A DNA stretch of 51,458 bases from a virus, in IMG/VR virus record IMGVR_UViG_3300028907_000006, positions 1-51,458 of that record. One strand, written 5' to 3'. The notes under the pieces were generated by a model that was not told where the DNA came from, did no database searches, and saw only the letters and a program-made list of their open reading frames with translations. The position numbers and the translations under genes are program-made. Shown here one piece after another: positions 1-49,894 of the stretch; the first letter of the stretch is position 1, and each line of letters starts with the position of its first letter.

Positions 1-127
1 AAAAGTAAATGGCTGGGTTGGAATGCTACTGCTAAAGTCTATGCCTTGGCGTATAGTGCTAAGTTTGTAAAAGACATAACTGATACAACCAAAAGCCAAA
101 TTCAAGGAATTTTAGACCAAGGCTATA
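1..127. repeat. Terminal direct repeat (assembly overlap / circular closure), identical to 51332..51458
   Basis: Read directly: nt 1..127 (aaaagtaaatggctgggttgg...ggctata) recur base for base at 51332..51458 and run to the window end. Confidence 0.95.
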
Positions 128-1680: not shown

Positions 1681-2853
1681 TTGGAAGAAACCAAAAAAGC
1701 AATCCAAGGTTTGAACGACACTTGGGTCGAATTCAAGAAGATTTTGGAGAGGCAAGATGCAGAAATCAAAATGTTCGGGGCGGCGAAAGCCGAAACCCAA
1801 GAAATCCTGTCTAAACTCAACACCCGGCTGGATGACTTTGAAGTAAAGTTGAACCGGGCGTCACACCAGATCGCTTCTGCCGTTGTGGCTGAATCCAAAA
1901 TGTATCAAGAAGCGTTCGTGAAATGGGCTCGGTATGGTTCCGTGTCGGCTGACGAACAGAAATTCCTCCGGGTTCCCGAAGAACAAAAATCGCTGAATGC
2001 TACCGTCGGCAGTGCCGGGGGCTATCTGGTTACCGACGAATTTGTGGCCGAAATCCTGAAAAATGTTGTTGAGTTTTCTCCGATTCGCTCCATCGCCAGG
2101 GTTCGTACCACTTCGCAACGTTCCGTGAAAATTCCCAGCAGAACCGGCACCTTTTCGGCGGCTTGGGTCGCAGAGCAAGGCACCCGGTCTGAGACCACCG
2201 GATTGGCGTATGGCCTGAAAGAAATTCCCACCCATGAAGTGTATGCTCTGGTTGATATCTCCAAACAGGAGTTGGAAGACAGCGCATTCAATATGGAGGC
2301 AGAACTCCAAGCGGAGTTTGGCGAGCAATTCGGCGTGGCTGAAGGCACCGCATTTGTTTCCGGCACCGGCATCGGCAAGCCCGAGGGTTTCACCGTCAAT
2401 TCGGACATTTCCTACACCGCTGGCGGTCATGCATCTCAGCTCAATTCTGGGGATGCTCTTGTATCGCTGTTCTATGCACTCAAAGGCGTGTATGCTAATA
2501 ACGGTTCGTGGGTTCTGAACCGCACAACTCTCGGAGTTGTCCGCAAACTGAAAGACGGCACCGGGGCATACATTTGGCAACCCAACTATCAAGTAGGTCA
2601 ACCACCGTCCATTCTCGGTCGGCCTTATGTGGAAGCTACCGACATGGCCGACATCGGTGCAAATGCATTCCCGATTGCCTTTGGCGATTTCCGAAAAGGC
2701 TACATCATTGTTGATCGCACCGACATCGAAGTTCAGCGTGATCCCTATACCCAAGCAACTTCTGGTAATGTTCGGTTTATTGCCCGCAAACGGCTGGGCG
2801 GCCAGCTCGTTATTCCCGAAGCTGTACGGCTGTTGAAGATCGCCACTTCCTAA
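1681..2853 (+). CDS. Major capsid protein, HK97 fold
   Basis: 390 aa with an N-terminal coiled-coil delta-like region. Motifs GGYLVTDEF, SAAWVAEQGTR and FGDFRKGYIIVDR are typical of the HK97 MCP family. It follows the protease. Confidence 0.9.
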   Translation: MEETKKAIQGLNDTWVEFKKILERQDAEIKMFGAAKAETQEILSKLNTRLDDFEVKLNRASHQIASAVVAESKMYQEAFVKWARYGSVSADEQKFLRVPEEQKSLNATVGSAGGYLVTDEFVAEILKNVVEFSPIRSIARVRTTSQRSVKIPSRTGTFSAAWVAEQGTRSETTGLAYGLKEIPTHEVYALVDISKQELEDSAFNMEAELQAEFGEQFGVAEGTAFVSGTGIGKPEGFTVNSDISYTAGGHASQLNSGDALVSLFYALKGVYANNGSWVLNRTTLGVVRKLKDGTGAYIWQPNYQVGQPPSILGRPYVEATDMADIGANAFPIAFGDFRKGYIIVDRTDIEVQRDPYTQATSGNVRFIARKRLGGQLVIPEAVRLLKIATS

Positions 2854-2882: not shown

Positions 2883-3428
2883 TTGTCCTACAATAATGTT
2901 GATAACTACTTGGAACAAGGTGGCTCAACTTGGAAGATTGGCGGCCAACTCGATATTATCAGCGGTGGAGCGCAAACGGTTGAATCCGGGGGCACTCTTA
3001 CAGTTGAATCTGGTGGCGTAGCAAACATTGATTCCGGGGGCAAACTTACGGTTGACTCCGGGGGTCAAATTTTGTTCGGGGCTGGCGCCAAACTTTCTCA
3101 TGCTATTACTGCCGCATCTTCGGCTCAAACTCTGTCTCTGCCTGGGGTATACCAGATCAATGGAACTAGCACTTGGGTGGATGACGTCATAACTCTGCCG
3201 GCACCTACTACCAATGGCGAGTTCTTCGAGTTCTTCGCCAAAATTCCTACGTCAACCGCAAGTGTGGCTATTACCAGCACTGGACCCAATATTGTTAACT
3301 TCCTGGGTGGAGCTGGTGTGGTAATCAAACTTTTCGGCGGCGGCTACGCCAAACTTCAAGCTATGGGCTCCACTTGTTGGGGGGCGGTTATTACCGCATG
3401 TTCTAGCGGCTCTTATGTTGTTGCCTAG
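2883..3428 (+). CDS. Hypothetical structural protein with SGG-x-(L/V)TV(E/D)SGG repeats
   Basis: TTG start 5 nt after AAAGGGGGGAG. N-terminal repeats: IISGGAQTVESGGTLTVESGGVANIDSGGKLTVDSGGQ. It directly follows the MCP gene (decoration or fibre candidate). Confidence 0.55.
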   Translation: MSYNNVDNYLEQGGSTWKIGGQLDIISGGAQTVESGGTLTVESGGVANIDSGGKLTVDSGGQILFGAGAKLSHAITAASSAQTLSLPGVYQINGTSTWVDDVITLPAPTTNGEFFEFFAKIPTSTASVAITSTGPNIVNFLGGAGVVIKLFGGGYAKLQAMGSTCWGAVITACSSGSYVVA

Positions 3429-3472
3429 TGTAAATCAAAAACAAAATTTGTAATAGCAGGAGGGGCATAATA

Positions 3473-4294
3473 ATGACTGAAAACGTTATGGCTGAAGTGA
3501 CGACCGAGGCCAGGAAAAAGAAGGTAGCAATTGTTGGTTTTGCTGAAACATCTCGCCACATGGCTCCTTACTCGGATGAGTCTTTTGAAATTTGGGGTCT
3601 GAATGAGCTCTACATGCAGATTCCCAGGTGGACTCGCTGGTTTCAACTCCATTCAAGAGAAGTATTTGTTGATGACTTTTCAGATCGGGATAAGGAGCAT
3701 GTGGAACATCTTTCCAAGATGACGTGCCCCATCTATATGTGTCGCCATTACGAGGATATTCCCAACAGCATTCCATTTCCGCTTGAAGAGGCCATCAAAT
3801 ACTTTAGCCTGTGCCCCAAGCGTGAGGCTTGTAAGGTTGAAGGCAAAAGTTGTATGGCTTGTCGTGAAATGGATGCGTATTTCACAAACTCCATATCATA
3901 CATGATCGCTCTTGCGATTATGGAGGGGTTCGAGGAAATTCATGTGTATGGCGTCGACATGGCTCAAGATACTGAGTATGGTACGCAAAAACCCAGTTGC
4001 GAGTTCTTTATTGGCTGGGCTCGGGGTCAAGGCATTGAGGTAGTATTACCCAAAGAGGCAGATTTATGCCGCACCTTCTGCTATTACGGATATGAAAAAG
4101 AACCGCAGATCAAGCAAAAGTTCCGCTTGAAAAAAGATGAGATGGAACGGCGCATCAAGGAACATGAAGAAGAAATCAGAAAAATTGATGCGTCCATGCA
4201 AGATTTGACAAACAAAAAAGTTCTTCAACATCGGTTTATAGACCACTTGCGAGGAGGGTCACAAATTTGTGACTACTTTATTCGCAATTGGTAA
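3473..4294 (+). CDS. Hypothetical protein; candidate sialyl/nonulosonate-transferase-like enzyme (CstII/GT42- or Maf/DUF115-like architecture) with a C-terminal coiled coil
   Basis: Strong RBS (AGGAGGGG-N7-ATG). The N-terminal KKKVAIVGFAETS...EIWGLNELY and later YFTNSISYMIALAIMEGFEEIHVYGVDM parallel, from memory, CstII KKVIIAGNGPSL...DVFRCNQFY and RITSGVYMCAVAIALGYKEIYLSGIDF. The functional call is an inference. Confidence 0.45.
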   Translation: MTENVMAEVTTEARKKKVAIVGFAETSRHMAPYSDESFEIWGLNELYMQIPRWTRWFQLHSREVFVDDFSDRDKEHVEHLSKMTCPIYMCRHYEDIPNSIPFPLEEAIKYFSLCPKREACKVEGKSCMACREMDAYFTNSISYMIALAIMEGFEEIHVYGVDMAQDTEYGTQKPSCEFFIGWARGQGIEVVLPKEADLCRTFCYYGYEKEPQIKQKFRLKKDEMERRIKEHEEEIRKIDASMQDLTNKKVLQHRFIDHLRGGSQICDYFIRNW

Positions 4295-4314
4295 AAATGT
4301 AAGGAGGGAATAAA

Positions 4315-4740
4315 TTGGCTAACAAAGACTTGTTTAACAATTTGGCTGTTTACGGCCAGCTGAATGTTACCATCACTAGCACCAGTGCTCGTGTTGGCGA
4401 CATTGTGGATCGCAAAGGCTACGAATCAGTGCTGGCGATTATGTCTGCGGGGCAATCCACTGCAGGTAGTACCAGCGCAACTGTATTTACGCTTATTCAT
4501 GGAGATTCCTCCGGTCTGGGTGATGGCGCTGTAGTCACCGACGATTATCTCATCAACAACACTACAGCGGCTTCTTGGACTTGGACTTCTACCGGGAGTG
4601 ATGGTGATGTCGAGCGTGTAGGCTATCTTGGCGACAAACGGTATCTCCAAATGAGTGTGGCCTGTGCCACCACTAAAGAATCTGTGCCTGTTGGGTTCTT
4701 CATTTTCGGAAATCCCAGGAGTGCCCCGGTTTCCACCTAA
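4315..4740 (+). CDS. Small Ser/Thr/Gly-rich hypothetical head-module protein
   Basis: TTG start after AAGGAGGGA; 141 aa. S/T-rich tracts include VTITSTSARVG, SAGQSTAGSTSATV and TWTSTGSDG. Confidence 0.55.
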   Translation: MANKDLFNNLAVYGQLNVTITSTSARVGDIVDRKGYESVLAIMSAGQSTAGSTSATVFTLIHGDSSGLGDGAVVTDDYLINNTTAASWTWTSTGSDGDVERVGYLGDKRYLQMSVACATTKESVPVGFFIFGNPRSAPVST

Positions 4741-4758
4741 TAGAAGGGGGTGCCGATA

Positions 4759-5058
4759 TTGTCTGTATTTGGCGGAGCTAAAAATGGATTCAGTTCAATA
4801 GCTTCTGTATCCAGCAGTGCGGTTACTACTTTATTGGGCGAAAACTTCGACAGACTCAATCTTACATTGTATAACATAAGCACGGGTACAATTCTTGTGG
4901 GCTTTAATCTCACTCCAACTTCCTCTGTTTATAGTTATGCGTTGTCCGGTTCTTCTGCTATGTTGAAAGTTGATTCTTGGCAAGGGGCGGTATATGCTTT
5001 GGCGTCCAGCTCTGGTTGCTCGGTTACGGCTTTTGAAGTGGCTGTATCTACAGGGTAG
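4759..5058 (+). CDS. Small Ser/Thr-rich hypothetical head-module protein
   Basis: The TTG at 4759 is 6 nt after AGAAGGGGGTG; the GTG at 4750 in the ORF track overlaps the RBS. The 99 aa include SSIASVSSSAVTT and LTPTSSVYSYALSGSS. Confidence 0.5.
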   Translation: MSVFGGAKNGFSSIASVSSSAVTTLLGENFDRLNLTLYNISTGTILVGFNLTPTSSVYSYALSGSSAMLKVDSWQGAVYALASSSGCSVTAFEVAVSTG

Positions 5059-5197
5059 GTGGTTTGATGTTTTCAAAAGTCAAACGTCCAAAAGTAACAA
5101 TTGAGGCTGTTGTATATCGAGCTAACGGACAAGTTGAAGTGCTGGGGGAGTTAAAGTCAACTTCCCCAGCCAAAAAACTCTGGAGAGGAGTGAAAAA

Positions 5198-5590
5198 ATG
5201 GCTGCGGATGATGTAATGGTAACTGATTTGGGCTTACAAATTGTGGCTAAAAGGATTGCCGGTCAAGGAACTGAGCCCATTTACATTCATTGGGGAAAAG
5301 GCACAACCGCTAATGCGGCGGCAGAAACAACTTTGGGTCTATGGTCCACGGCTGAGAACAGCGTGCTTGGAACTTCCACGTACATTACCACCAATACCAC
5401 TCTTGATACGTATCAAGTGACTGGTACTATAACGGCGGCTTCCAGCCAAGCCATTACCGAAGTTGGATTGTTTGATTCGGCTTCTGGTGGTACCAATGTT
5501 CTCTTTATGCGGGGCATGTTTGATCCCATCAACGTCAATATTGGCGATTCGATTGCTTTCACCATCAAAACTGTATTCGACCAAGCATAG
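5198..5590 (+). CDS. Hypothetical protein, paralog of 18014..18451
   Basis: RBS GGAGAGGAG. The pattern (L/I)...G......I..GKGTT...A.TTLG....E...G.....T......Y..TG.I.......I.E.GLFD...GG.N.LF.R is shared with the 145-aa distal-tail ORF. Confidence 0.55.
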   Translation: MAADDVMVTDLGLQIVAKRIAGQGTEPIYIHWGKGTTANAAAETTLGLWSTAENSVLGTSTYITTNTTLDTYQVTGTITAASSQAITEVGLFDSASGGTNVLFMRGMFDPINVNIGDSIAFTIKTVFDQA

Positions 5591-5601
5591 GGGGTGCTAT
5601 T

Positions 5602-5850
5602 ATGGCACTGTCCTACACGATTCGCAAAGTTTACAAGCGAGAAAAGCACCATACAGTAGTGGTGCTTGATTTAAGCAACGGCCAAGAAACGTCCTTTGTG
5701 CTTTCTCCGGTCGATTTTGCCGCTGTTACAGCGACTTCTCAAGCTCGGGCTGTAGTCAAGGCAAAAGTAGTTGAGGCTGTACGACAAATTGCAGTGTATG
5801 AAGCTGTTGTAGATTATTTGCAAACTTTGGAAGGGTCGGTGATTACATGA
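5602..5850 (+). CDS. Hypothetical protein (82 aa)
   Basis: ATG after GGGGGTG. Its stop overlaps the next start (ATGA at 5847). Confidence 0.5.
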   Translation: MALSYTIRKVYKREKHHTVVVLDLSNGQETSFVLSPVDFAAVTATSQARAVVKAKVVEAVRQIAVYEAVVDYLQTLEGSVIT

Positions 5851-6158
5851 TAGCATACACCACCGCCCCAATTTCTGTAAATTCTGCTACAACCACCACA
5901 ATTTTATCTTGGACTGGCGATGGAGTTACGGCTTTTGCTGGATTTTTAGCCCAAGGTCAAGTTCCTGCTGTATACTCGTTGTGTGTTAGCAGCAGTGCGT
6001 TATACAAGTATCAAACTAATGGCGCAGACATGACCGCGTTTGTACTTGATAAGCCATGGATTCCAGCAAATGGTTCCTCCTTCGCGATTACTGTATACCA
6101 CGAAGCTCCAGGAGCAAAAACGTTTACAGGTACGATTTTAGGCGCAACAAGCGGATAA
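5847..6158 (+). CDS. Small Ser/Thr/Ala-rich hypothetical protein (103 aa)
   Basis: ATGA coupling to the upstream ORF. The sequence is T/S/A-rich (TTAPISVNSATTTTILSWTG). Confidence 0.5.
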   Translation: MIAYTTAPISVNSATTTTILSWTGDGVTAFAGFLAQGQVPAVYSLCVSSSALYKYQTNGADMTAFVLDKPWIPANGSSFAITVYHEAPGAKTFTGTILGATSG

Positions 6159-6166
6159 GAGGGTTG

Positions 6167-6204
6167 GCCCGCAGCTCAAAAGGTTGCGGGCTATCCATTT
6201 TATT
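6167..6204 (+). terminator. Candidate intrinsic terminator/attenuator inside the late operon
   Basis: GCCCGCA(6167-6173)...TGCGGGC(6185-6191) form a stem extendable by G-U pairs. It is followed by TATCCATTTTATT. Confidence 0.4.
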
Positions 6205-6217
6205 GGAGGTGAGAATT

Positions 6218-6625
6218 TTGCAAAATGAGTTAATAAAAGATGTTATTGTACTTCATACCACAGCTTCTGCCTTGACAGCAACTACCGTAGGTAGTGGGAT
6301 TTTGGTTCATCCGTTCCGGTCTGGAATGCTATACCTACGGCCTGAAACAGTTTCGGGAACTAGCCCGAATATGCTTTATAAAATAGAAACTTCGCCAGAT
6401 AACGCAAGCTGGTATCATTGCGCAATCTTGATCGACAAAGACACCACCGGAAACCTAACCCGCACGACTTCACCCACGACGACAAACGAATATAAGGTGA
6501 CATCTTCCGCATATTCCCATATGTGCCAAGTTGACAACATGGCCCGATATATCCGCACGAATGTTGTGATCGGTGGCTCAACTCCGAGTTTTGCGGTTGA
6601 TGCGCAGTTGGTGCTCTATGGCTAG
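6218..6625 (+). CDS. Hypothetical protein (135 aa)
   Basis: TTG at 6218 lies 7 nt after GGAGGTGAG. The longer ORF-track start at 6056 overlaps 5847..6158 and crosses the hairpin. Confidence 0.5.
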   Translation: MQNELIKDVIVLHTTASALTATTVGSGILVHPFRSGMLYLRPETVSGTSPNMLYKIETSPDNASWYHCAILIDKDTTGNLTRTTSPTTTNEYKVTSSAYSHMCQVDNMARYIRTNVVIGGSTPSFAVDAQLVLYG

Positions 6626-7511
6626 AAAAGGGGTTATATTTCCAGTAGGAGCTTCGGGAGCTTGGGATGATACCAGCACTAGTTGCGGTTGCCCTTGCGT
6701 ATTGTATCATGGAAATCATGTATATCTGTATTATAGCGGCACCACTGAGGGAACTTATTTTCGCACGGGGTTAGCTATATCCAAAGATGGAGTCAACTTT
6801 GTTAAAAAGGGGGCTGTTGTAGTTTTTGGAGCGGCGGGGCAAATAGATACAAGAGAAATTCGTGACCCATCAGTCATTTATAAAGACAACCATTTCTGGA
6901 TGTATTACCGGGCAAAAACTGACTCTGGAGGGTATAATTATGGACTAGCATTAGCTATATCCAAAGACGGAGTCAACTTTGTTAAAAAGGGAATTGTGCT
7001 ACCGCTAGGAGCTTCTGGGGCTACTGATGATGCGGCTATGGCCGTACCTTCAGTTGTGTATAACCACGGCCATGTTTGGTTGTATTATGCGGCTTCTCCA
7101 AATGGGAGCTTACATTATTGTTCTTTAGCAGTATCTAAAGATGGCGTCAATTTTGTGAAGAAGGGCGTGGCGGTCACTATTGGGTCATCATCGGAGATGG
7201 ATGCTACTACTGTTTGGGGTGGGAGGGTTTTAGTTTATAACAACTGGTTTTTGAATTGGTATCATGGAGTATATTGGAGTTCTGGGTACTATGACCGAAT
7301 ATTTTTTGCAGTGTCTAAAGACGGCATGAATTTTGTAAAGAAAGGCGTTTCAGTGCCTTTTGGAGCTTCTGGAAATTGGGATGATGGAGCAATCTATGAG
7401 GGTGGAGCCATGATTAAAGATGGATATTTCTGGTTGTATAGGTCGAGCAACGATCAAATTACATCCAAAATTGGTTTAGATTGTTACCCAGTCCAACAAT
7501 ATTTCCAATAA
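6618..7511 (+). CDS. Beta-propeller protein with four near-identical ~60-aa blades (GH32/43/130 / DUF377-like S-x-D-G-x-x-F motif)
   Basis: The ATG at 6618 overlaps the upstream stop (ATGGCTAG). (A/V)(I/V)SKDG(V/M)NFVKKG occurs four times, each preceded by GASG.WDD...P.V.Y....W.YY. Confidence 0.65.
   Translation: MARKGVIFPVGASGAWDDTSTSCGCPCVLYHGNHVYLYYSGTTEGTYFRTGLAISKDGVNFVKKGAVVVFGAAGQIDTREIRDPSVIYKDNHFWMYYRAKTDSGGYNYGLALAISKDGVNFVKKGIVLPLGASGATDDAAMAVPSVVYNHGHVWLYYAASPNGSLHYCSLAVSKDGVNFVKKGVAVTIGSSSEMDATTVWGGRVLVYNNWFLNWYHGVYWSSGYYDRIFFAVSKDGMNFVKKGVSVPFGASGNWDDGAIYEGGAMIKDGYFWLYRSSNDQITSKIGLDCYPVQQYFQ
6771..7350 (+). repeat. Intragenic tandem repeat: ~38-40-nt conserved core (ttagctatatccaaagatggagtcaactttgttaaaaaggg) recurring at 180/174/180-nt spacing
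   Basis: The cores start at 6771 and 6951 with one mismatch between them. More diverged copies lie around 7125 and 7305. Confidence 0.8.
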
Positions 7512-7527
7512 AAGGCGGTGATGGGTA

Positions 7528-9315
7528 TTGGCTCACAACAAGCAAAAGGGCTTTTGGTTAAGCCAATATGGCTCTGCCGCTGGCGGAACTGTACTCAATG
7601 AAAAGACAATCTCCGGGGGAGCAAAAGCTGGGTTGTATATTTTAGACACCGCCGGTAAAATTTTGACTGCGACTGAAAGCAAAATCTCCGGGTTGAGGGG
7701 CTTTTCTGCTTCGGTAATAAAATCCGGGGGTTCAAAAATTGCTCCTGTACGTTCTCTGGTGGCTAATATTGGTATAATAGCCACTTCTACTTTAGAGTGT
7801 GGTAGATTCTCAGTCACGAGTAAATTGACTGGGGGAATAGCCCACATTTCTTCTTCGGTTGCCCGGCTCCTTGCTTTCGGAAAAACTCTGCTCGCAGAGA
7901 TCGCTGGGAGCGGTTTAATACTTCGATTGTCGTCCATATCTAAAATCGGAGAATCCAATAACAGTGTATTGTTAACTAGGTCGGTTCAAGCAGTAAAGTT
8001 TGGTTTCAGCTCTGCTTCAAACTCGATTGTTAGGGCTGTTTCAAACATAATCTCTGGTTCAGTCAAATTGACTGGGTATACGAATTATGGGCTTCAATTC
8101 TTGAAGACAATTCTCGGAGGAATGAAAACCGGGCTTTCAATCCTTCGGGCTAACTCCAACACCATAACTTCAAGCTCAAAAATTTCTGGGTATAGCCCGA
8201 GAGGTGCCTACAGAAATATTGCGGGCACAATCGAACCGCTGAACTCCATAGCTAGAAGTACAACAAATACCATAACTTCATTAGCTTCAACCGCTGGAGC
8301 TATCGTCAGAACGATTGGGAATATACTGTCTGCTGTTGTAGATTTGTCGGGGTTGCTATTAAAGGGCAATCAGCTTAGCAAAATATTGAGTGCTGGAGCG
8401 GATATTGGAAATAACTTACTCCGACAGGCATCTGTTGCAAAAGAATCGACTTCAAGTTTGGCTGGGGCAATATCTCGTGGTGTTTTCAAATTCGCAACGA
8501 TTGCAATAAAATCCTCCGGGGCTAAAGTAGTGTATGTCACAAAAGCAATGTCTAATGTGATACAGCCATATATTGAAACCGTAAATAGTACAGCTAGAAC
8601 TCTATACAAACAAGTGGCCGTGTATGGTTTGGTAGATCGCTTATTTGCTTTTACCAAAGTTATTGTTGGCTATATAGACAATAGTCTGTCGCTGTTGAAA
8701 GGTTCCTACAAGATCGTGTATGGAAACTTGAGCCTGGGAGGGGCAATCAATATCCTCCGGGGGCTAGTGTTGTCTGTAGAATCTTCTATACAAGGAACTT
8801 TGCCCCGGACAATATCGGTTGAAAAATCTCTGGGGGCAATCGCTTCTGGGGCTTTAACCAGAATCTCTCAGGTAATAAAATCCAGCGCCATTAAATTGTC
8901 TGGGTCAATTATTCGAGGGGCTTTGGCTACAAAAGATATTGTGGGTTATGTCGACAACTCTGCTATTTTGATTCGTGACTCCGTAAAATATATGGGTTCA
9001 CAAATAAAAGTGGGGCTAGAAGACATCCACAAAGCGGCGGTCAAAGTAGTGCCTGGGTACATTCAACTGGTTGTAACTGTACCCAGAGCTGTATCCAGAG
9101 AATTGATTATCTCAACAGCTAAAATCTCCGGGGCGGTTCTAAAATCCACGGCCAGAGTATTAGGTGTTGCTCTTGTGTCGGTAGAATCGTTGCTATCCAA
9201 ACTCTTTAGCGGAGCTATACTGCATCCCATCATTAATCTGTTAGGTACATTTATTACAAGAATCGGTTTGCTTGGCGAGCATATATCCCGGTTCGACAAG
9301 GAGGGCAGATTCTAA
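7528..9315 (+). CDS. Large repetitive low-complexity protein (595 aa; Ser/Ile/Leu/Gly/Ala/Lys-rich, degenerate K(I/L)(S/T)G repeats)
   Basis: Long uninterrupted ORF between the head and connector genes. Recurrent SKISGLRG, SKLTGGIA, VKLTGYTN, SKISGYSP, IKLSGSII and AKISGAVL. I recognise no family. Confidence 0.55.
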   Translation: MAHNKQKGFWLSQYGSAAGGTVLNEKTISGGAKAGLYILDTAGKILTATESKISGLRGFSASVIKSGGSKIAPVRSLVANIGIIATSTLECGRFSVTSKLTGGIAHISSSVARLLAFGKTLLAEIAGSGLILRLSSISKIGESNNSVLLTRSVQAVKFGFSSASNSIVRAVSNIISGSVKLTGYTNYGLQFLKTILGGMKTGLSILRANSNTITSSSKISGYSPRGAYRNIAGTIEPLNSIARSTTNTITSLASTAGAIVRTIGNILSAVVDLSGLLLKGNQLSKILSAGADIGNNLLRQASVAKESTSSLAGAISRGVFKFATIAIKSSGAKVVYVTKAMSNVIQPYIETVNSTARTLYKQVAVYGLVDRLFAFTKVIVGYIDNSLSLLKGSYKIVYGNLSLGGAINILRGLVLSVESSIQGTLPRTISVEKSLGAIASGALTRISQVIKSSAIKLSGSIIRGALATKDIVGYVDNSAILIRDSVKYMGSQIKVGLEDIHKAAVKVVPGYIQLVVTVPRAVSRELIISTAKISGAVLKSTARVLGVALVSVESLLSKLFSGAILHPIINLLGTFITRIGLLGEHISRFDKEGRF

Positions 9316-9662
9316 TGGCTCTCAGGGATCAAGATTTTGAAATTTGGCAGGGCGAAGAAAAAGACGTGTATTTTACAATTACCGGGGACAGTAGTGAAGT
9401 CAAGGATTTGACTGGAGCCACTATAACCTGGAAAGCCATGAGACATCCGTCGAGTACAGCCGCAGACATAACTTGTACCACTACAGATTATATTACCATA
9501 AGTGGGGCTACATCAGGAATATTCAAATTGGCTTTGGCTTCTTCTCACTCCACCGGAGTTTGGGGGAAATTTTATCACGAAGCCAGAGTTGTAGACACAT
9601 TAAGCTATTCTGAAGTTGTAGCTACTGGTCTCATGATTATCAATCGGAGTGGTACTCTGTAG
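9315..9662 (+). CDS. Hypothetical small beta-sandwich-like protein (115 aa)
   Basis: TAATG overlap with the upstream stop; RBS AAGGAGGG. The pattern D..F.IWQGE.KDVYFTI....  DLTGATITWKA resembles Ig-like phage accessory domains. Confidence 0.5.
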   Translation: MALRDQDFEIWQGEEKDVYFTITGDSSEVKDLTGATITWKAMRHPSSTAADITCTTTDYITISGATSGIFKLALASSHSTGVWGKFYHEARVVDTLSYSEVVATGLMIINRSGTL

Positions 9663-9673
9663 GGGGTGAAAAA

Positions 9674-10285
9674 GTGTCGTTGACTTTAGTTGTTGAGCCA
9701 GTGGAAGAACCATTAGAGTTGGATGAAGTTAAAGACTATCTAAAAGTGGACCACGACTATGATGATGCTTTAATAGCGGAGTTGATAACAACAGCCAGAA
9801 TTATGGCTGAGAAAGAGTTGAGAAGAGCTTTATTGACGCAAACTTGGGAATACTCCTTGGACGGAGTTCCTGGGTCATATGACGGTTCTAATCTACCTTC
9901 TGATTGGCCTTGGTCGCTGATTCCGGCAGGAAAAGGCTATTTGGAATTGCCTTTGCCCCCACTACAATCGGTAGATTCTGTATCATACTACGATTTAGAC
10001 AATGTATCCCACACATTCTCCACCAGCAATTATTCGGTCAGTACTCGGAGCACTCCCGGTAAAATCTACTTGAATAACGGCTGTGTTTGGCCTTCAGAGT
10101 TGAGATCGCATGAGTCCATGGTAGTAAAGTATATTGCTGGTTGGACTTATCCGGGGCAAATTCCTGCGGCCATTCGTATGGGGTTGAAGCGTTGGGTGGC
10201 GTATATGTATCAGAATCGAGGGGATGAGAATATTCCAATTGAAACCAGAAAGCTCTTTGAGCCGTATAGGGTGGTGAGGCTTTGA
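9674..10285 (+). CDS. Head-tail connector / adaptor (gp6-like, Phage_connect_1 type)
   Basis: LELDEVKDYLKVDHDYDDALIAELITTARIMAEKELRRALLTQTW is the characteristic N-terminus of this family. GTG start after GGGGGTGA. Confidence 0.8.
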   Translation: MSLTLVVEPVEEPLELDEVKDYLKVDHDYDDALIAELITTARIMAEKELRRALLTQTWEYSLDGVPGSYDGSNLPSDWPWSLIPAGKGYLELPLPPLQSVDSVSYYDLDNVSHTFSTSNYSVSTRSTPGKIYLNNGCVWPSELRSHESMVVKYIAGWTYPGQIPAAIRMGLKRWVAYMYQNRGDENIPIETRKLFEPYRVVRL

Positions 10286-27401: not shown

Positions 27402-27414
27402 TACAAATGTCCTC

Positions 27415-43420: not shown

Positions 43421-44636
43421 TTCTGAAGCATTAGAGTTGATGTATAATTGGTCTTTTTGGGCCAGGCCAAATCAAATTCCTCCTTCGGCTGTAGATTGGA
43501 GTACATGGTTGATATGTACCGGGCGTGGCTGGGGGAAAACTCGGACTGGTGCTGAGTGGGTGAGATGGTTGGCTGAAAGCGGTAAATTTGGGAGGATTGC
43601 TCTGGTCGGGGCTACGGCGGCTGACGTCAGAGATATCATGATTGAAGGAGACAGTGGGATAAAGGCTGTTTGTCCTCCATGGAACTATCCTAATTATGAG
43701 CCCAGCAAGCGGAGATTGACTTGGCCTAATGGCGTCCGGGCTATCGCATATTCTGCTGAAGAACCAGCCCGGTTGAGGGGGCCACAGCATCATGCGGCTT
43801 GGGCCGACGAATTGGCTAGTTGGAAATATCCTGAGACATACGATATGCTGTTGTTAGGGTTGCGGCTAGGGGTTAAGCCAAGAGTGGTAGTCACAACCAC
43901 TCCTAAACCAATCAAAATCATACGAGAATTGGTGAAAGACGACACCACCACAGTAACTACTGGGAGCACTTTTGAAAATCGAGCTAATCTGGCTAAGACA
44001 TTTCTAAATGAAGTCACAAAGAAGTATGAAGGCACTAGGCTCGGGCGCCAAGAATTGTATGCGGAAATTCTTGAAGATGTCGAGGGGGCTTTGTGGAATC
44101 GGGACATGCTGGAAGCTGTAAGGGTGTCTACAGTTCCAGACATGAAAAGAATTGTAGTTGCCGTTGATCCTTCGGTTTCTAACAATGAAAATTCGGCTGA
44201 GACTGGAATTATAGTTGTTGGTCTGGGGGTAGATGGTAATGGGTATATCATCGATGATAAAAGCATGGTAGGTTCTCCCGACGAATGGAGCAGTGAAGTC
44301 ATAGCTCTCTATAACAAACACAAAGCAGATCGAATTGTTGTTGAAGTTAATCAAGGTGGAGATTTGGTTGAGACTGTTTTGAGAACCAAATTCACGAGGG
44401 CGCCAATTAAGAAGGTTCATGCTTCCCGGGGCAAACAAACAAGAGCTGAGCCGGTGGTAGCTTTGTACGAACAAAAGAGAGTTAAACATATTGGATTTTT
44501 TCCTTTTCTGGAAGATCAACTCTGCTCTTGGGTCCCAGGAATAAGTAAGAGTCCAGACAGAATGGATGCTCTTGTTTGGGGGATTACAAGTTTGATGCTT
44601 GAAAATGAGCCGACTTTGCGGGTCAGGCGTTTATAA
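43413..44636 (+). CDS. terL: Terminase large subunit
   Basis: ATG at 43413 (GGATGAGTGA overlap with the terS stop). WSFWARPNQIPP...LICTGRGWGKTRTGAEW (Walker A) and a C-terminal RNaseH-like nuclease region (VAVDPS...). Confidence 0.9.
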   Translation: MSDSEALELMYNWSFWARPNQIPPSAVDWSTWLICTGRGWGKTRTGAEWVRWLAESGKFGRIALVGATAADVRDIMIEGDSGIKAVCPPWNYPNYEPSKRRLTWPNGVRAIAYSAEEPARLRGPQHHAAWADELASWKYPETYDMLLLGLRLGVKPRVVVTTTPKPIKIIRELVKDDTTTVTTGSTFENRANLAKTFLNEVTKKYEGTRLGRQELYAEILEDVEGALWNRDMLEAVRVSTVPDMKRIVVAVDPSVSNNENSAETGIIVVGLGVDGNGYIIDDKSMVGSPDEWSSEVIALYNKHKADRIVVEVNQGGDLVETVLRTKFTRAPIKKVHASRGKQTRAEPVVALYEQKRVKHIGFFPFLEDQLCSWVPGISKSPDRMDALVWGITSLMLENEPTLRVRRL

Positions 44637-44649
44637 GGGGGCGTGGGGG

Positions 44650-45429
44650 TTGAGAAAAATAACTCAGTTGTGTCTGGGTACAGTTCAACTTGGTATGCCT
44701 TATGTTACCAAAAAACCAAAATTGAAGGATTCATTGGAGATTCTTGCGTTTGCTGAGAGCGCAGGAATTTCTTGTTTTGATACAGCTCAAGCCTATGGTA
44801 CAGCGGAGGAGATTTTGGGTACATTCGGTATGGGTGGAGACAGAAAGGTGATTACCAAGTTACACCCGGATGCTACAAGGGTCGATATTCAACTGTCGTT
44901 GGATAGATTGGGTGTAAGTAAGGTGTTTGCTTTTTTGTTGCATCGGCCCAGCCATATGTATTCGTATGGAATCGCTCACCGTATGAGAGAGTTGAGAGAG
45001 CAGGGTTATTGCGATCATGTGGGAGTATCTGTGTATGATAAAGGAGATGCTATTTGGGCGGCTAATGCTGATTGGGTTAGCGCCATAGAATTTCCTTATA
45101 ACTTGTTGTGTAAGGAGCTGGATGATTCTCCCTTCTTCGACTTGGCGGCAGGGAAGGTGCTGATAGCAAGACAGCCATTCGCTAAAGGTGAATTGTTCCG
45201 CTGTGGGATGGACTTCTTTGGGGTGAATCGGGCTCAGGCGTGTCTGCAATTTGTTATGAATCATATACCCAGGTTCGACTATGTGGCCTTCGGGGTAGAT
45301 GATTTAAGACAATTGCAGGAGAATGTTGAGGGCTCAAAGAAAAGCGTGCCGATGATGGAATCCAATCGAATTTGGAGAGAATCATTGAAGCTCAACGCTT
45401 ATCTGCCGCCCAGTTTGTGGGCCAATTAG
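44650..45429 (+). CDS. Aldo/keto reductase-family oxidoreductase
   Basis: LGTVQLGMPY...SAGISCFDTAQAYGTAEEILG is the AKR N-terminal signature. TTG at 44650 after AAGGGGGCGTGGGGG. Confidence 0.65.
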   Translation: MRKITQLCLGTVQLGMPYVTKKPKLKDSLEILAFAESAGISCFDTAQAYGTAEEILGTFGMGGDRKVITKLHPDATRVDIQLSLDRLGVSKVFAFLLHRPSHMYSYGIAHRMRELREQGYCDHVGVSVYDKGDAIWAANADWVSAIEFPYNLLCKELDDSPFFDLAAGKVLIARQPFAKGELFRCGMDFFGVNRAQACLQFVMNHIPRFDYVAFGVDDLRQLQENVEGSKKSVPMMESNRIWRESLKLNAYLPPSLWAN

Positions 45430-46128
45430 ATGGGTGTTGTAGCTATCGTTCAAGCTCGACTAGGGTCAACTAGGTTGCCTGGAAAAGTTCTAATGGACTT
45501 GGAGGGGCAACCCATGTTGTATAGACAACTTGAAAGAATCAAAAGAAGTAGGTTGTTGGATGATGTGGTGGTAGCAACCAGCTGTTTGGAGAAAGATAAT
45601 GCTTTGGAAGAGTTCTGCTGGCGTGTAGGGGTTGCATGCTACCGGGGCTCAGAGAAGGATGTTCTGAGTAGGTATTTGGCTACCGCTTATCATATTGGGC
45701 TTTCTGATGGTGATAGTATAGTTCGATTGACTGCAGATTGTCCGTTGACTGATTGGCGCATGATAGATCGGGTTATACTGAACCACAAGAAGTATGGAGC
45801 AGACTATACGTCAAATGTAATTCCTCCTACTTATCCTGATGGATTGGATGTAGAAGTTTTTACACTTGATACATTGGAGAAAGCCTGGATTCATAACAAT
45901 AAAGTTCATTGCGAAGATTGTTCGGAACATGTTACGACCCACATGAAAGATTTGAAATACTTCAAGACCATAAGTGTAGTGGGTGAAGAAGATTTGTCTA
46001 GGCTGAAGTGGTCGGTAGATACTATGGACGATTTGATGTTTGTGAGGGGGGTGTATAAAAAGTTGTTTAAGTCCAATCCCGACTTCGGGGCAGAGGAAAT
46101 TTTGGAGCTGTATGGCAATCGAATTTGA
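45430..46128 (+). CDS. SpsF/COG1861-type cytidylyltransferase (acylneuraminate cytidylyltransferase-like; candidate CMP-sugar synthetase)
   Basis: VAIVQARLGSTRLPGKVL N-terminal motif. Confidence 0.7.
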   Translation: MGVVAIVQARLGSTRLPGKVLMDLEGQPMLYRQLERIKRSRLLDDVVVATSCLEKDNALEEFCWRVGVACYRGSEKDVLSRYLATAYHIGLSDGDSIVRLTADCPLTDWRMIDRVILNHKKYGADYTSNVIPPTYPDGLDVEVFTLDTLEKAWIHNNKVHCEDCSEHVTTHMKDLKYFKTISVVGEEDLSRLKWSVDTMDDLMFVRGVYKKLFKSNPDFGAEEILELYGNRI

Positions 46129-46168
46129 CTGGATACAATAAGAGAGTGTAAATGAAGGAGGGGCAATT

Positions 46169-47416
46169 GTGAATTTTTCCGAGTCAGACGTGGCGTTGGA
46201 AAGAGCTTTACAAGTTATTCCAAATGGGACATGTACGTTCTCAAAATCTCGAACCATGCTCCCGGTCGGGCATAGCCCATTTTATGCAGACAGAGGATTT
46301 GGCGGTCATCTGTGGGACATTGATGATAATGAATTTTTGGACTTGACTATGGGGCTAACTGCGGTCACTCTCGGGTATAGACACAAAAGAGTGGACCAAG
46401 CAGTTATGGCTCAAGTAAAAAGGGGAGGAGCTATTTTCTCTCTGCCTCAAAATTTGGAAATTACCGTGGCTGAACGAATAATTGATATGGTTCCTTGTGC
46501 CGAGATGGTGAGATTTGGCAAGAATGGGTCTGATGTAACTGCTGGAGCAGTAAGATTGGCTCGATATGTTACTGGGCGAGATATGGTGTTGTGTTGCGGC
46601 TACCATGGTTGGCAGGATTGGTACATCGGCACTACCGGGAGGAATGGGGGCGTGCCGGCGGTTGTATCGGAGTTGACTAAACAATTTCGGTACAATGATA
46701 TTCTTCACCTCACTGTTCTGTTGGAGAAGTATGAAGGCCAAGTTGCTTGCGTGATTATGGAGCCAATGAATAGGGTTTTTCCCGTTCCTGGCTTTTTGCA
46801 ATCGGTACAAAATTTGTGTAAGAAATATGGCGTGATATTTATTTTGGATGAAGTTATTACCGGATTCCGTTTTGCAAATGGCGGGGCTCAGGAGTATTTT
46901 GGAATTGTTCCTGATATGTGTACTCTTGGAAAAGGGATTGCCAATGGGTATCCTCTATCAGCTGTTTGCGGCAAACGAGAATTGATGGAGGAGTTCTCCA
47001 AGATACACTTCTCATTCACCTACGCCAGTGACTCGATTGCTTTAACAGCGGCTAATACTACGTTGTTGGAGTACAAGTATGGAGATGTCTGTGAGAAGTT
47101 AGCTGAGCGTGGAGAAAAGTTGAAGACGGAGTTAAACAAGAGTATTCGGGAGATTGGGATCACGCATTTAATTTCTTCGGTCAGCGGCCATCCGGCTTGG
47201 TCTCATTTCAACTTCAAAGATGATGTGGTTAAAAGCGAGTTTTTGAAGCAAGTACACTCTCTTGGAATATTGACTGCAGGTACAAATAATTTGTGCTATA
47301 TGCATACAGACGCAGATATTGATTATGCTCTATGTATGTACGAGATAGCATTTGAGCGTTTGGCCTCTCTTGATTGGACTAAAGCTGATTGCTTGGTTGA
47401 GAGGGGGGTCAGATAA
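46169..47416 (+). CDS. Class-III PLP-dependent aminotransferase (glutamate-1-semialdehyde aminomutase-like)
   Basis: GTG after GAAGGAGGGG. DEVITGFRF and the PLP-lysine region CTLGKGIANGYP. Confidence 0.75.
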   Translation: MNFSESDVALERALQVIPNGTCTFSKSRTMLPVGHSPFYADRGFGGHLWDIDDNEFLDLTMGLTAVTLGYRHKRVDQAVMAQVKRGGAIFSLPQNLEITVAERIIDMVPCAEMVRFGKNGSDVTAGAVRLARYVTGRDMVLCCGYHGWQDWYIGTTGRNGGVPAVVSELTKQFRYNDILHLTVLLEKYEGQVACVIMEPMNRVFPVPGFLQSVQNLCKKYGVIFILDEVITGFRFANGGAQEYFGIVPDMCTLGKGIANGYPLSAVCGKRELMEEFSKIHFSFTYASDSIALTAANTTLLEYKYGDVCEKLAERGEKLKTELNKSIREIGITHLISSVSGHPAWSHFNFKDDVVKSEFLKQVHSLGILTAGTNNLCYMHTDADIDYALCMYEIAFERLASLDWTKADCLVERGVR

Positions 47417-47946
47417 TGAAAGAAGTATCCTTCAAGGCGTTGAAAAAAGAGGACATGGCTCAGATCGTGGAATGGAGAAATTCTACTGTTGGTGTATTGC
47501 GTACTCCATTCTTGATGACTAAAGATATGCAGGAGGAGTTCTATGAAAGAACGGTCTGTGATCGTGGGGCTGATTCCAGATATTTCGCTATTCATTTTGA
47601 TGGTTCTCTGGTTGGTATGGCAGGCGTAAACAACATATCTTGGGAGAACCGCAATGGAGAAATCTCTTTGTTAGTCAATCCGAAGTTGCGGGGCAAAGGG
47701 ATCGGCTCTATGGCTGTTTTGGAAATTTTGCGTATCGGATTCAACTGCATGAACTTGGAGAATATCTATGGCGAGTGCTATTTCAGCAATCGGGCTGGAA
47801 TAAAGTTCTGGGAATCGCAAATTGAAAGGTTTCATGGATACACGGCTATCCTTCCCAACAGAAAGTTCTTTGGAGGAGAATACCACGACTCATTGTACTT
47901 CTCCTTTAATCGTAAAACTGTTTGGGAGGGGGGCGAACGTGTATGA
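47416..47946 (+). CDS. GNAT N-acetyltransferase (PseH-like)
   Basis: L.KEDMAQIVEWRNS......P and the GNAT core RGKGIGS. TAATG overlap with the upstream stop. Confidence 0.65.
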   Translation: MKEVSFKALKKEDMAQIVEWRNSTVGVLRTPFLMTKDMQEEFYERTVCDRGADSRYFAIHFDGSLVGMAGVNNISWENRNGEISLLVNPKLRGKGIGSMAVLEILRIGFNCMNLENIYGECYFSNRAGIKFWESQIERFHGYTAILPNRKFFGGEYHDSLYFSFNRKTVWEGGERV

Positions 47947-48911
47947 GGCTCAAATTTATTGCTGAGATGAGCGCAAACCACAACGGTTCTTTGGAGAGGG
48001 CGTTAAAGATCGCTGAAATGGCCGCTGGAGCTGGCTGTTTTGCGCTGAAGCTCCAAACATACACTCCCGAAGAAATTACAATGGACCCAGAGCTGAGGAA
48101 AATTTATGAAGTAGGACAAACGCCCAGGGAATGGCACAAAGATATTTTCAATCATTGTAAGGTGCTAGGCATACGCTGTTTTTCGTCCCCATTCAGCGTT
48201 GGTGCCGTCGATTTTCTGGAACAATTTGAGCCCTGGGCGTACAAAATATCCAGCTTTGAGATTGGGGATTTGGAGTTGGTAAAAGCCGTAGCCAAAACAA
48301 AGCGGAACGTTGTTATGTCTATTGGAATGGCGTCGAAGCTGGAAATTCAATTGGCTTTGGATACGCTGAGGGAATATGGGGCGGCGTCAATAACTCTATT
48401 GAAATGTACTTCGGCTTATCCTGCTCCGGTCGAGAATATGAATTTGATTACATTGCTTGAAATGAAAAGGTTGTATAAAACCGAGGTGGGAATATCAGAC
48501 CACAATTTATCCCATTTGCCTTCGCTAGTGGCTATTTCACTTGGGGCTACTATGGTTGAAAAACACTTTACGTTGAAGCGGAGCGATGGTGGGATTGACT
48601 CCATGTTTTCGATTGAGCCCGGGGAGATGGTTGATTTAATCGCTCAAGCCGGTTGGGTTGAAAAGATTGCGGGCAAAGTCCATTTTGGTCCCACTCCCGG
48701 AGAACGTGTGGATTTGAAAAGATCGCTACATGTTGTTGAGGATTTGAAGAAAGGCGATGCGCTAGGATTCAACAACGTAAAGGCTCTCAGGCCGGCTGGA
48801 GGGTTAGCCCCCAAGACTTTATACAGCATACTCGGGGCTCATGTAAATAAAGATGTATCTGCTGGCTCTCCGTTGACGATAGACATGGTTGAATTCGGGA
48901 GGGTTAAATAA
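47943..48911 (+). CDS. NeuB/PseI-family nonulosonic-acid synthase (PEP-condensing) with a C-terminal SAF-like domain
   Basis: FIAEMSANHNGSLERALKIAEMAAGAG..ALKLQTY and ISDH. The ATG at 43 of 47943 overlaps the GNAT stop (ATGA). Confidence 0.8.
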   Translation: MRLKFIAEMSANHNGSLERALKIAEMAAGAGCFALKLQTYTPEEITMDPELRKIYEVGQTPREWHKDIFNHCKVLGIRCFSSPFSVGAVDFLEQFEPWAYKISSFEIGDLELVKAVAKTKRNVVMSIGMASKLEIQLALDTLREYGAASITLLKCTSAYPAPVENMNLITLLEMKRLYKTEVGISDHNLSHLPSLVAISLGATMVEKHFTLKRSDGGIDSMFSIEPGEMVDLIAQAGWVEKIAGKVHFGPTPGERVDLKRSLHVVEDLKKGDALGFNNVKALRPAGGLAPKTLYSILGAHVNKDVSAGSPLTIDMVEFGRVK

Positions 48912-49894
48912 TGAGGGGGGCTACAGTTTTAATCACTGGCGGCACAGGGTCATTCGGAAAAGCATTTGTAAAACACATTTTGAATTTTGGATATGGCGTT
49001 AAAAAAATCATTGTCTTATCTCGGGATGAGCTCAAGCAATCGGAAATGGCTGTGGAGTTTAACAATGACGACAGGCTAAGGTTCTTTATTGGTGATGTCC
49101 GTGATAAAGATCGTTTAATTAGGGCATTTTACGGAGTGGATTATGTTATTCATGCGGCGGCTTTGAAGCGAATCGAGGTGGGTGAATATAATCCAGGAGA
49201 ATTTCTGAAGACTAATGTGTTGGGTACACAAAATGTTGTTGAGGCGGCAATAACTTGTGGCGTCAAAAAGTGTATGTTACTGAGTACAGATAAAGCCTGT
49301 GCTCCAGTTAACACATATGGGAAAACAAAGGCGTTGGCTGAATCCCTTTTTGTTGCGGGCAATTCCTACTCGGGCATGAATTTGCCGAGATTTTCTGTTG
49401 TTAGATACGGTAATGTGCTTGGTAGCAGGGGTAGTGTAATCCACCTATTCAAGGAGCAAGCTAAAACCGGGACAATAAAGATAACAGATTTGGGAATGAC
49501 TCGGTTTTGGATCACTCTCGACAGCGCAGTACAGTTTGTATTGGATTGTCTCTGCGTTATGAAGGGTGGAGAAATTTTTGTACCCAAACTCCCGAGTATG
49601 AGGGTTATGGACTTAGCTATGGCGATTGCCCCTAACACAAAAACCGAGGTGATTGGGGTTCGTCCGGGCGAGAAGATTCATGAGTATATGATAAACAAGG
49701 ATGAATCCCGCCATGCTTTGGATGATATGTCTAGGTACATTATTTATCCAGAGTATCAATTTTGGGGGCAAACGGCCTATTCTGGAGTTCCTGTACCTGA
49801 AGGTTTTGAATACTGTAGCCATTTGAATGACGTATGGTTGAGCGTGAAGGAGTTGAAGGAGGTTGTTTCAAAAGATAAGGGGTTTGTGGTATAA
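48911..49894 (+). CDS. pseB: UDP-GlcNAc 4,6-dehydratase (PseB/FlaA1/CapD-type SDR)
   Basis: VLITGGTGSFGKAF, LSRDELKQ, RFFIGDVRD and NTYGKTKALAESLF (YxxxK). Confidence 0.8.
   Translation: MRGATVLITGGTGSFGKAFVKHILNFGYGVKKIIVLSRDELKQSEMAVEFNNDDRLRFFIGDVRDKDRLIRAFYGVDYVIHAAALKRIEVGEYNPGEFLKTNVLGTQNVVEAAITCGVKKCMLLSTDKACAPVNTYGKTKALAESLFVAGNSYSGMNLPRFSVVRYGNVLGSRGSVIHLFKEQAKTGTIKITDLGMTRFWITLDSAVQFVLDCLCVMKGGEIFVPKLPSMRVMDLAMAIAPNTKTEVIGVRPGEKIHEYMINKDESRHALDDMSRYIIYPEYQFWGQTAYSGVPVPEGFEYCSHLNDVWLSVKELKEVVSKDKGFVV

Follow-up and report, generated by a model that had tools for sequence, protein, structure and literature searches.

The GT42-like gene and its locus

The sequence analysed here, hereafter the window, is the complete 51,458-nucleotide viral record IMGVR_UViG_3300028907_000006 of IMG/VR (positions 1 to 51,458), and our subject is a gene on its forward strand, at 3473-4294, that encodes a protein of 273 residues. 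Overall, our observations are best explained if this gene belongs to a phage-only family of glycosyltransferases that depend on nonulosonic acids (NulOs) activated with cytidine monophosphate (CMP), possess a fold like that of glycosyltransferase family 42 (GT42), and likely act on proteins of the phage head. We assign this statement as a whole a probability of about 0.65, with greater confidence in the fold and less in the acceptor. The features of the gene itself are as follows.

3458..3463, + strand: Shine–Dalgarno sequence AGGAGG, read from the sequence, with a 9-nt spacer to the ATG
3473..4294, + strand, including the stop codon: coding sequence of the 273-residue GT42-like putative CMP-nonulosonate transferase (ATG start, homologues, profile and fold matches)
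3515..4102, + strand: predicted catalytic Rossmann-type domain, residues 15-210 (AlphaFold2 model, Foldseek, HHalign pairing, conservation over 243 sequences)
3959..3988, + strand: loop of residues 163-172 (MAQDTEYGTQ), a short counterpart of the CstII lid that holds E168 and Y169 (dip in AlphaFold2 confidence, HHalign, conservation, intein sites)
4103..4288, + strand: long C-terminal helix of residues 211-272 with coiled-coil character (AlphaFold2 secondary structure, weak coiled-coil Pfam matches in relatives)

An original prediction, made from the sequence alone, had described an open reading frame (ORF) of 273 residues with a perfect ribosome-binding site, two genes past the major capsid gene. 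Both parts of this description are confirmed, as AGGAGG lies 9 nt before the ATG and the capsid gene (1681-2853) is followed first by orf181 (2883-3428) and then by the gene in question. The ORF is far beyond chance occurrence and is a genuine gene, because a single search returned 625 homologous clusters, all labelled hypothetical and lacking Pfam domains, and an exhaustive search returned 5,461 representative clusters at E ≤ 1e-3 (2,234 at E ≤ 1e-30), with clusters defined at 50% identity.

Relationship to GT42 sialyltransferases

The protein had been likened to the GT42 sialyltransferase CstII through the order and spacing of short motifs, namely KKKVAIVGFAETS (residues 15-27), EIWGLNELY (residues 39-47) and YFTNSISYMIALAIMEGFEEIHVYGVDM (residues 136-163). 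All of the quoted motifs are present in the translation, and the CstII segments to which they were compared proved accurate, being found in a CstII sequence that agrees with PDB entry 2wqq at 289 of 291 residues. Searches with the 273-residue protein alone added little, in that NCBIfam returned no match, PHROGs returned only noise-level matches on the C-terminal helix, and phmmer against PDB returned only noise (adenylate kinase, ARF).

The likeness to CstII is carried by comparisons made at the level of the family. An alignment of 61 family sequences served as the basis of a hidden Markov model (HMM), an AlphaFold2 model and a profile for HHalign. Searched against PDB sequences, the HMM placed GT42 sialyltransferases in the top nine positions, CstII entries (E 2e-3 to 6e-3) being followed by CstI and 9c08, with alignments spanning the N-terminal strand through the GxD strand. 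The AlphaFold2 model, for which the predicted local distance difference test (pLDDT) score is 86 and the predicted TM-score 0.78, consists of an alternating beta/alpha domain (residues 17-191) and one long helix (residues 211-272). When this model was compared with PDB using Foldseek, the top 13 chains were all CstII or CstI (E 7e-6 to 1e-4, probability 1.0), and the next match dropped to E 0.027.

HHalign of the family alignment against a GT42 profile of 27 sequences built around CstII gave a probability of 80.6% and an E-value of 1.3e-5 over 130 columns, and reproduced the residue pairing of the original prediction. Specifically, G22 is paired with Gly8, N44 with Asn31, the T138-N139-S140-x-S142 cap with the Thr131/Ser132 loop, G160-V-D162 with Gly152-Ile-Asp154, and Y169 with Tyr162. 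Mismatches in the donor site are F23-A24 in place of N9-G10 and A164 in place of Tyr156, and position 162 is either Asp or Asn across the family. Among the 61 relatives, sub-threshold matches to the CST-I family (PF06002) were obtained for 11, the best with an E-value of 0.0023.

A kinship with the Maf/DUF115 flagellin transferases had also been suggested, and here the signals are weak. Matches to PF01973 (MptE-like/DUF115) were seen in 6 of the 61 relatives (best E 0.027), the structural matches of the model in BFVD include DUF115/MptE-like viral proteins, and the 273-residue protein itself gave no match to PF01973. Taken together, the profile, structure and HHalign comparisons identify the protein as GT42-like, with GT42 as its nearest relative over residues ~15-210. 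It is nonetheless not a member of GT42, because it falls below the Pfam cutoff, has only a short loop in place of the lid and offers no alignable equivalent of His188.

Conserved residues, the lid-equivalent loop and inteins

With respect to catalysis, a His or Asp equivalent to CstII His188, the catalytic role of which is summarised in PMC4202792, had been put forward as a mark of the proposed function. No alignable equivalent was found, and the family has an invariant H60 and E168 instead. This is the weak point of the original prediction, which the fold and the co-occurrence with NulO genes otherwise support. Across 243 distinct family members these two are the only invariant polar side chains (242/243 each), accompanied by the near-invariant glycines G22 (241/243) and G160 (243/243). 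No conserved His was found past residue 160 in these 243 sequences, H60 being the only invariant His. In the AlphaFold2 model, H60 lies at the end of strand 3, while E168 and Y169 sit within a loop of ~10 residues (163-172) that follows the GxD strand, shows a dip in pLDDT and leads into a helix. Judged by the topology of this model, H60 may correspond to Asn51 of CstII, described in PMC4202792 as an acceptor-binding residue. A placement of E168 at the position of His188, by an ungapped register anchored on P193 and CstII P213, was considered and rejected. HHalign sets Y169 on Tyr162 and thereby contradicts this register, and for this reason we claim no equivalent of His188.

By analogy, a glutamate is plausible as the general base. 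Around the donor site, the central domain of Maf enzymes resembles CstII in structure, and the critical residues of these enzymes are acidic ones and a conserved Ser (bioRxiv 10.1101/2020.06.03.131540). A Glu base in the phage protein is plausible because these critical residues include no His. The phage family has an invariant E168, D/N162 and the conserved S140 and S142, which may be counterparts of the Maf residues.

The loop that holds E168 and Y169 is also distinguished by inteins, which were found in 15 of 262 family proteins. These have Cys at position 1 and a C-terminal (H/S)N followed by Ser or Thr, most contain a LAGLIDADG-type block, and one intein-bearing member matches Pfam Intein_splicing. 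The protein of the present phage lacks an intein.

Larger intein-bearing members with a LAGLIDADG-type block, 506-633 residues: P0247, P0256, P0263, P0270, P0299, P0309, P0339, P0366, P0367, P0380
Mini-intein members, 375-459 residues: P0251, P0277, P0303, P0318, P0383

Two insertion sites flank E168-Y169, GVDMAxD|[S/T]EY and [S/T]EY|SxQRPSCE, corresponding to residues 166/167 and 169/170 (nt ~3968-3982). As inteins characteristically home into conserved functional motifs, the presence of two sites within this one loop argues for its importance. This observation also bears on whether the protein could be a protein of head assembly or decoration that lacks catalytic activity and has simply retained a Rossmann-like fold, as its location among head genes and a long C-terminal helix of scaffolding-type character would allow. 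We regard this as very improbable, since the invariant residues, polar or Gly and located where strands end and helices are capped, match a nucleotide-sugar site, the inteins target the E168-Y169 loop, and genes of NulO biosynthesis are found in linkage with the family.

A pseudaminic acid cassette and linkage to NulO synthesis

The two ends of the window (1-127 and 51332-51458) are identical over ~127 bp, an assembly overlap, and the junction of the ends is bridged in L086, a related contig of 93-95% nucleotide identity, so the window is a complete circular phage genome of ~51.3 kb. A MuF-like gene spans this junction, and L086 holds an extra ~830 bp within that gene. On the circle, the gene order is TerL (43317-44636), a sugar cassette, portal (49863-51077), MuF, protease, capsid, orf181 and the 273-residue gene, with the end of the cassette ~5 kb upstream of the last. 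The cassette comprises six genes.

44599..45429, + strand: aldo/keto reductase, opening the cassette on its 5′ side (PF00248, E 2e-18)
45430..46128, + strand: cytidylyltransferase of CMP-sugar synthetase type (KdsB/PseF-like), putative maker of the CMP donor (PF02348, E 2e-30)
46169..47416, + strand: class-III (HemL-like) aminotransferase, presumed stand-in for PseC (PF00202, E 1e-48)
47416..47946, + strand: GNAT N-acetyltransferase, best match PseH but below cutoff (NCBIfam/Pfam)
47922..48911, + strand: PseI, pseudaminic acid synthase of the NeuB family (TIGR03586, 345.9 bits against a cutoff of 340.25; PF03102 and SAF domain)
48911..49894, + strand: PseB, inverting 4,6-dehydratase of uridine diphosphate N-acetylglucosamine (UDP-GlcNAc), first step towards pseudaminic acid (TIGR03589, 443.8 bits against 407.75; PF02719, Polysacc_synt_2)

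A phage-made NulO pathway, as had been proposed, is thus present at 44599-49894, and because PseB and PseI exceed their equivalog cutoffs we assign the cassette, by homology, to pseudaminic acid (Pse). It is non-canonical in having a class III aminotransferase instead of one of the DegT/PseC type, and its opening aldo/keto reductase gene shares 38 nt with the 3′ end of TerL. The Pfam scan, which covered 41 ORFs but not the smallest ones, revealed no other glycosyltransferase, and within that scope the description of the 273-residue protein as the only transferase-like product of the genome holds. The donor in this phage would accordingly be CMP-Pse supplied by its own cassette.

Co-occurrence across phages was assessed with HMMs built from the pathway genes, replacing an earlier tblastn screen that underestimated the linkage. 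Of 32 family loci for which 7 kb or more of upstream sequence was available, 13 carry a NulO pathway gene within 10 kb (NeuB in 7, a cytidylyltransferase in 8). This fraction is an underestimate, because in L051/L135 NeuB lies ~15 kb from the family gene on a single 82-kb contig. In the reverse direction, among 79 viral loci anchored on NeuB, a family gene lies within 10 kb in 18, against a background of 411 among 2.9 million viral contigs. The association with NeuB-like genes that the original prediction had proposed to look for is therefore strong in both directions.

Moreover, the family gene is genomically linked to NeuB-family synthase and CMP-sugar synthetase genes by embedding in NulO operons at six loci. 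In L047 and L068 the order is NeuB, family gene, NeuC and cytidylyltransferase (NeuC at 255.1 bits against an equivalog cutoff of 235.9), and L010 has the same start before its contig ends. As all three steps to the CMP-sugar are already covered in these operons, the family gene is left as a spare consumer of the product. L174 has the order capsid, X, family, family, NeuB, family, PseB and cytidylyltransferase; in L185 the family gene adjoins NeuB; and in L161 two family copies are followed by genes for a methyltransferase, a pyruvyltransferase, a cytidylyltransferase and NeuB. In L087, an unrelated phage whose portal is of the P22 type, PseB, NeuB, a GNAT gene and a class-III aminotransferase precede the portal and a family gene lies past the head genes. 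That both Pse-type and Neu/Leg-type pathways are partnered fits what would be expected of a general CMP-nonulosonate transferase.

These operons also speak to the idea that the protein is a biosynthetic enzyme rather than the final transferase, either replacing PseG (the UDP-sugar hydrolase) or modifying or hydrolysing the CMP-sugar. In favour of this idea, a gene resembling PseG could be found neither in the window nor in L086 and L087, whose Pse-type cassettes are related, and the fold superfamily includes proteins that are not glycosyltransferases, such as the MptE pyrophosphokinase (PF01973 description). The operons with NeuB, family gene, NeuC and CMP-transferase nevertheless need no hydrolase, NeuC being a hydrolysing epimerase that scores above its cutoff, and the family gene is still present. 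Many other loci have the gene beside capsid with no pathway genes nearby, and the residues aligned are those of the CstII donor site. We therefore consider a biosynthetic role improbable.

Genes for class-I S-adenosylmethionine methyltransferases recur beside or near the family gene (L084:4560-5198, L087:9170-9823, L161:7520-8239, L081:4566-5225). Along with the pyruvyltransferase of L161, they suggest further modification of the sugar or the acceptor.

Distribution, gene position and candidate acceptors

Relatives are encoded on the 411 IMG/VR contigs noted above, and a protein 98% identical to that of the window comes from sample SRR28820821. In cellular genomes only 28 loci were found among 185,579 species genomes, all on short contigs of metagenome-assembled genomes and scattered over phyla, and among 50,697 GenBank phage records there is a single match, Microcystis phage Mvi-Yong1342-1. 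On the strength of these counts, the family is essentially confined to uncultivated phages. The Mvi-Yong1342-1 homologue (L085:8905-9708, PP496355.1, XAN61349.1) shares 33% identity over residues 16-212, and its gene closely precedes that of the small terminase instead of following a capsid gene. It is annotated as a 'type 11 methyltransferase', probably mistakenly.

The usual position of the family gene is after the major capsid gene and typically one small protein, and before the head-tail connector genes, an arrangement common to phages with PF05065 capsids, PF03864 capsids and P22-type portals. The immediately preceding neighbours fall into several unrelated clusters and are consistently rich in Ser and Thr and low in charge (median Ser+Thr 24%, compared with 13% for all neighbours). 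In the window, the corresponding candidate acceptors are the following.

1681..2853, + strand: HK97-type major capsid protein and alternative acceptor candidate (PF05065, E 2.7e-80)
2883..3428, + strand: orf181, 181 residues, Gly/Ser/Thr-rich and all-beta with SGGxLTV(E/D) repeats; candidate acceptor or putative head decoration protein
4315..6158, + strand: orf141, orf102, orf130, orf82 and orf103, small and mostly Ser/Thr-rich head-module proteins, further candidate acceptors

The stretch between the capsid gene and the head-tail adaptor (9674-10285, phrog_442), at 2883-9662 (+), is unusually large for this position, at ~6.8 kb with about eleven uncharacterised genes, many of whose products are small and rich in Ser and Thr.

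The phage itself appears lytic, as judged from its replication module (family A DNA polymerase and primase-helicase) and from the fact that no integrase was seen among the scanned ORFs. In combination with the conserved head-module position, the phage-only distribution, the lack of another glycosyltransferase and the Ser/Thr-rich neighbours, this leads us to infer that the acceptors are Ser or Thr residues of the adjacent Ser/Thr-rich head proteins or of the capsid protein. Capsid or decoration proteins had been named as acceptors from the outset, and this proposal is consistent with the conserved synteny and the composition of the neighbours, while the step from gene position to acceptor remains inferential.

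The same evidence must be set against a different role, in which a CstII-type sialyltransferase has a glycan and not a protein as its acceptor; it could, for instance, cap host glycans (lipooligosaccharide, capsule, S-layer or flagellar) with the phage-made nonulosonate and so alter receptors (superinfection exclusion), instead of decorating the virion. The closest structures, CstII and CstI, do use sugar acceptors, and in L047, L068 and L010 the gene resides in a sugar operon without a recognisable adjoining capsid gene. An enzyme of surface glycans would nonetheless be expected to have cellular relatives, which are nearly absent, and the post-capsid placement in many unrelated phage lineages would mean co-expression with late head genes. 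Moreover, the scan of 41 ORFs revealed no further glycosyltransferase capable of assembling an underlying glycan, and the replication module and absence of a visible integrase suggest a lytic phage. Action on a glycan acceptor is in our judgement unlikely.

Several observations weigh against the interpretation of the family as NulO transferases of head proteins. In terms of fold, the only Pfam match of the single sequence is a sub-threshold one to CST-I (PF06002; 12.5 bits against a cutoff of 25, E 0.1, residues 140-168), and the Foldseek TM-scores to CstII and CstI are modest (0.38-0.46). In the active site, the HHalign comparison stops at CstII residue 163, leaving the ~30-residue lid and His188 without an alignable counterpart, and HHalign of sub-profiles covering the region past the GVD strand to the His188 helix, both local and global, failed (12.6% probability). 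With respect to linkage, 19 of the 32 long family loci have no NulO gene within 10 kb (for at least one of them, L051/L135, NeuB lies farther out on the contig), and the NeuB query sequences came from family-carrying phages, such that the 18 of 79 loci are not phylogenetically independent. Finally, the structural model of one candidate acceptor, orf181, is poor (pLDDT 61).

Comparison with characterised glycosylation systems

CstII and CstI (GT42, PF06002) provide the top and exclusive significant match in both Foldseek and profile searches. Like them, the phage protein has, in its model, a single Rossmann-type modified GT-A domain and is expected to use a CMP-nonulosonate donor. The motifs whose order and spacing appear to be shared comprise an N-terminal strand with a Gly loop, xxN after strand 2, a Thr/Ser-rich cap before YMxAxAI, G-x-D, and a Tyr paired with Tyr162. 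The differences are equally clear. Identity to CstII is ~15% and the phage protein scores below the Pfam cutoff; the lid spans ~30 residues in CstII (155-188) and ~10 here; His188 (His202 in CstI) has no alignable counterpart and Tyr156 is replaced by Ala; and the invariant polar residues H60 and E168 are features of the phage family. The C-terminus is a long helix here and a membrane-association segment in CstII. Furthermore, the phage family is found only in phages, in head modules, and its acceptor is probably a protein, as opposed to the galactose or sialic acid on lipooligosaccharide used by the GT42 enzymes.

In terms of function, Maf enzymes offer the best analogy, as they place Pse, legionaminic acid, N-acetylneuraminic acid or Kdo directly on Ser/Thr of a self-assembling structural protein (bioRxiv 10.1101/2020.06.03.131540). 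The phage family would similarly carry out NulO O-glycosylation of a polymerising structural protein, and its invariant Glu and conserved Ser residues may be counterparts of the critical Maf residues. Maf genes often occur as several paralogs, and tandem paralogs in two or three copies are likewise seen in some family-carrying phages (L174:8463-11625, L161:6155-7524, L186:10356-11875, L121:14868-16267). The structural resemblance is more distant, since the Maf structure 5mu5 was outside the top 50 Foldseek matches and PF01973 matches were weak and limited to 6 of 61 relatives. Maf proteins consist of a central domain flanked by large N- and C-terminal domains, as in 5mu5, whereas the phage protein has one catalytic domain and one helix in 273 residues, without such flanking domains, and is encoded by a phage rather than a bacterial flagellar locus.

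Tailed-phage virions are generally regarded as unglycosylated. The mycobacteriophage glycosyltransferases are of conventional type and are not known to use nonulosonic acids, and neither a NulO pathway nor a GT42-like fold is known from their system. According to PMC11256854, which summarises work of Freeman and colleagues from 2023, mycobacteriophages are a recent exception to the general rule: in phages Che8 and Rita, phage-encoded glycosyltransferases glycosylate capsid proteins and form a glycan shield. This is the sole precedent for glycosylated tailed-phage virions that we found in the literature searched, and it resembles the system proposed here in that phage glycosyltransferases modify the capsid. 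It differs in that the glycosyltransferase genes lie near the 3′ end of the genome and not in the head module. Within the limited collection searched, no description of phage-encoded nonulosonate transferases or of NulO-modified capsids was found. Overall, the sequences described here constitute a new, large, phage-specific and previously unnamed family within the CstII/Maf fold class, belonging to neither GT42 nor Maf as judged by score thresholds, by the lid and His188, and by Maf domain architecture.

Proposed mechanism and implications

In the mechanism that we propose, the 273-residue enzyme would be a soluble, single-domain glycosyltransferase with a CstII-like modified GT-A/Rossmann fold that takes its sugar from a nonulosonic acid activated with CMP. 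The cassette between TerL and portal would, late in infection, convert UDP-GlcNAc to CMP-Pse, as its genes indicate by homology, although no PseG was recognised among them. On the basis of the CstII alignment, the CMP-sugar would be bound through the G22 loop, N44, the T138-N139-S140-x-S142 helix cap, G160-V-D162 and Y169. A general base, potentially E168 in the lid-equivalent loop or H60 at the end of strand 3, would activate the acceptor hydroxyl for inverting transfer. As suggested by synteny, the sugar would then be transferred to Ser/Thr of proteins of the orf181 class, of other small head proteins or of the capsid, giving rise to virions decorated with sialic acids of bacterial type. The C-terminal helix of the model may serve in oligomerisation or in docking of the acceptor.

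A broader proposal is that, across many uncultivated tailed phages, members of this family of over 5,000 clusters cover the head with pseudaminic, legionaminic or neuraminic acids, O-linked to decoration proteins rich in Ser and Thr or to the capsid protein, through an H60/E168 arrangement unlike that of any characterised sialyltransferase family. We advance it tentatively, at somewhat short of even odds. If true, phage heads bearing nonulosonic acids would be a common feature of environmental viromes, and their decoration would represent a widespread and hitherto unrecognised class of post-translational modification of virions. Such a modification would affect how these phages meet host surfaces, lectins, grazers and immune systems, and would account for the presence of costly NulO pathways inside phage structural modules. 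At the level of annotation, thousands of hypothetical proteins gain a name and a testable function. The protein of the present phage, in turn, is a compact, soluble candidate enzyme of 273 residues for protein sialylation or pseudaminylation, and points to a sialyltransferase-fold active site that lacks the canonical His.

Other genes in the window

Two further products of the head-neck region are encoded between the candidate acceptors and the adaptor. A 312-residue protein (6573-7511, +) has signatures of GH32N/GH130/GH43-type beta-propellers and an internal 'AISKDGVNFVKKG' repeat. As a candidate glycan-binding or glycan-processing virion protein near a putative glycosylation system, it makes a noteworthy pairing. 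Adjoining it is a 595-residue low-complexity protein rich in Ser, Gly, Ala and Ile (7528-9315, +), for which no family match was obtained.

Elsewhere in the window, a gene set of the thymidine DNA hypermodification type was observed at 26712-29411 (-) and 39863-40342 (-).

26712-27401, - strand: thymidylate-synthase-like gene
27415-27831, - strand: thymidylate-kinase-like gene
27815-28393, - strand: 5-hydroxymethyldeoxyuridine (5-hmdU) DNA kinase (PF18748, 79 bits)
28368-29411, - strand: gene resembling amino-acid:DNA transferases (PF18724, 24.5 bits, narrowly under the cutoff)
39863-40342, - strand: dCMP deaminase

In the lysis module, a papain-like Peptidase_C1 domain fused to Cu_amine_oxidN1 (20088-21074, +) adjoins an Amidase_3 endolysin (21522-22088, +), an unusual partner for such a module.

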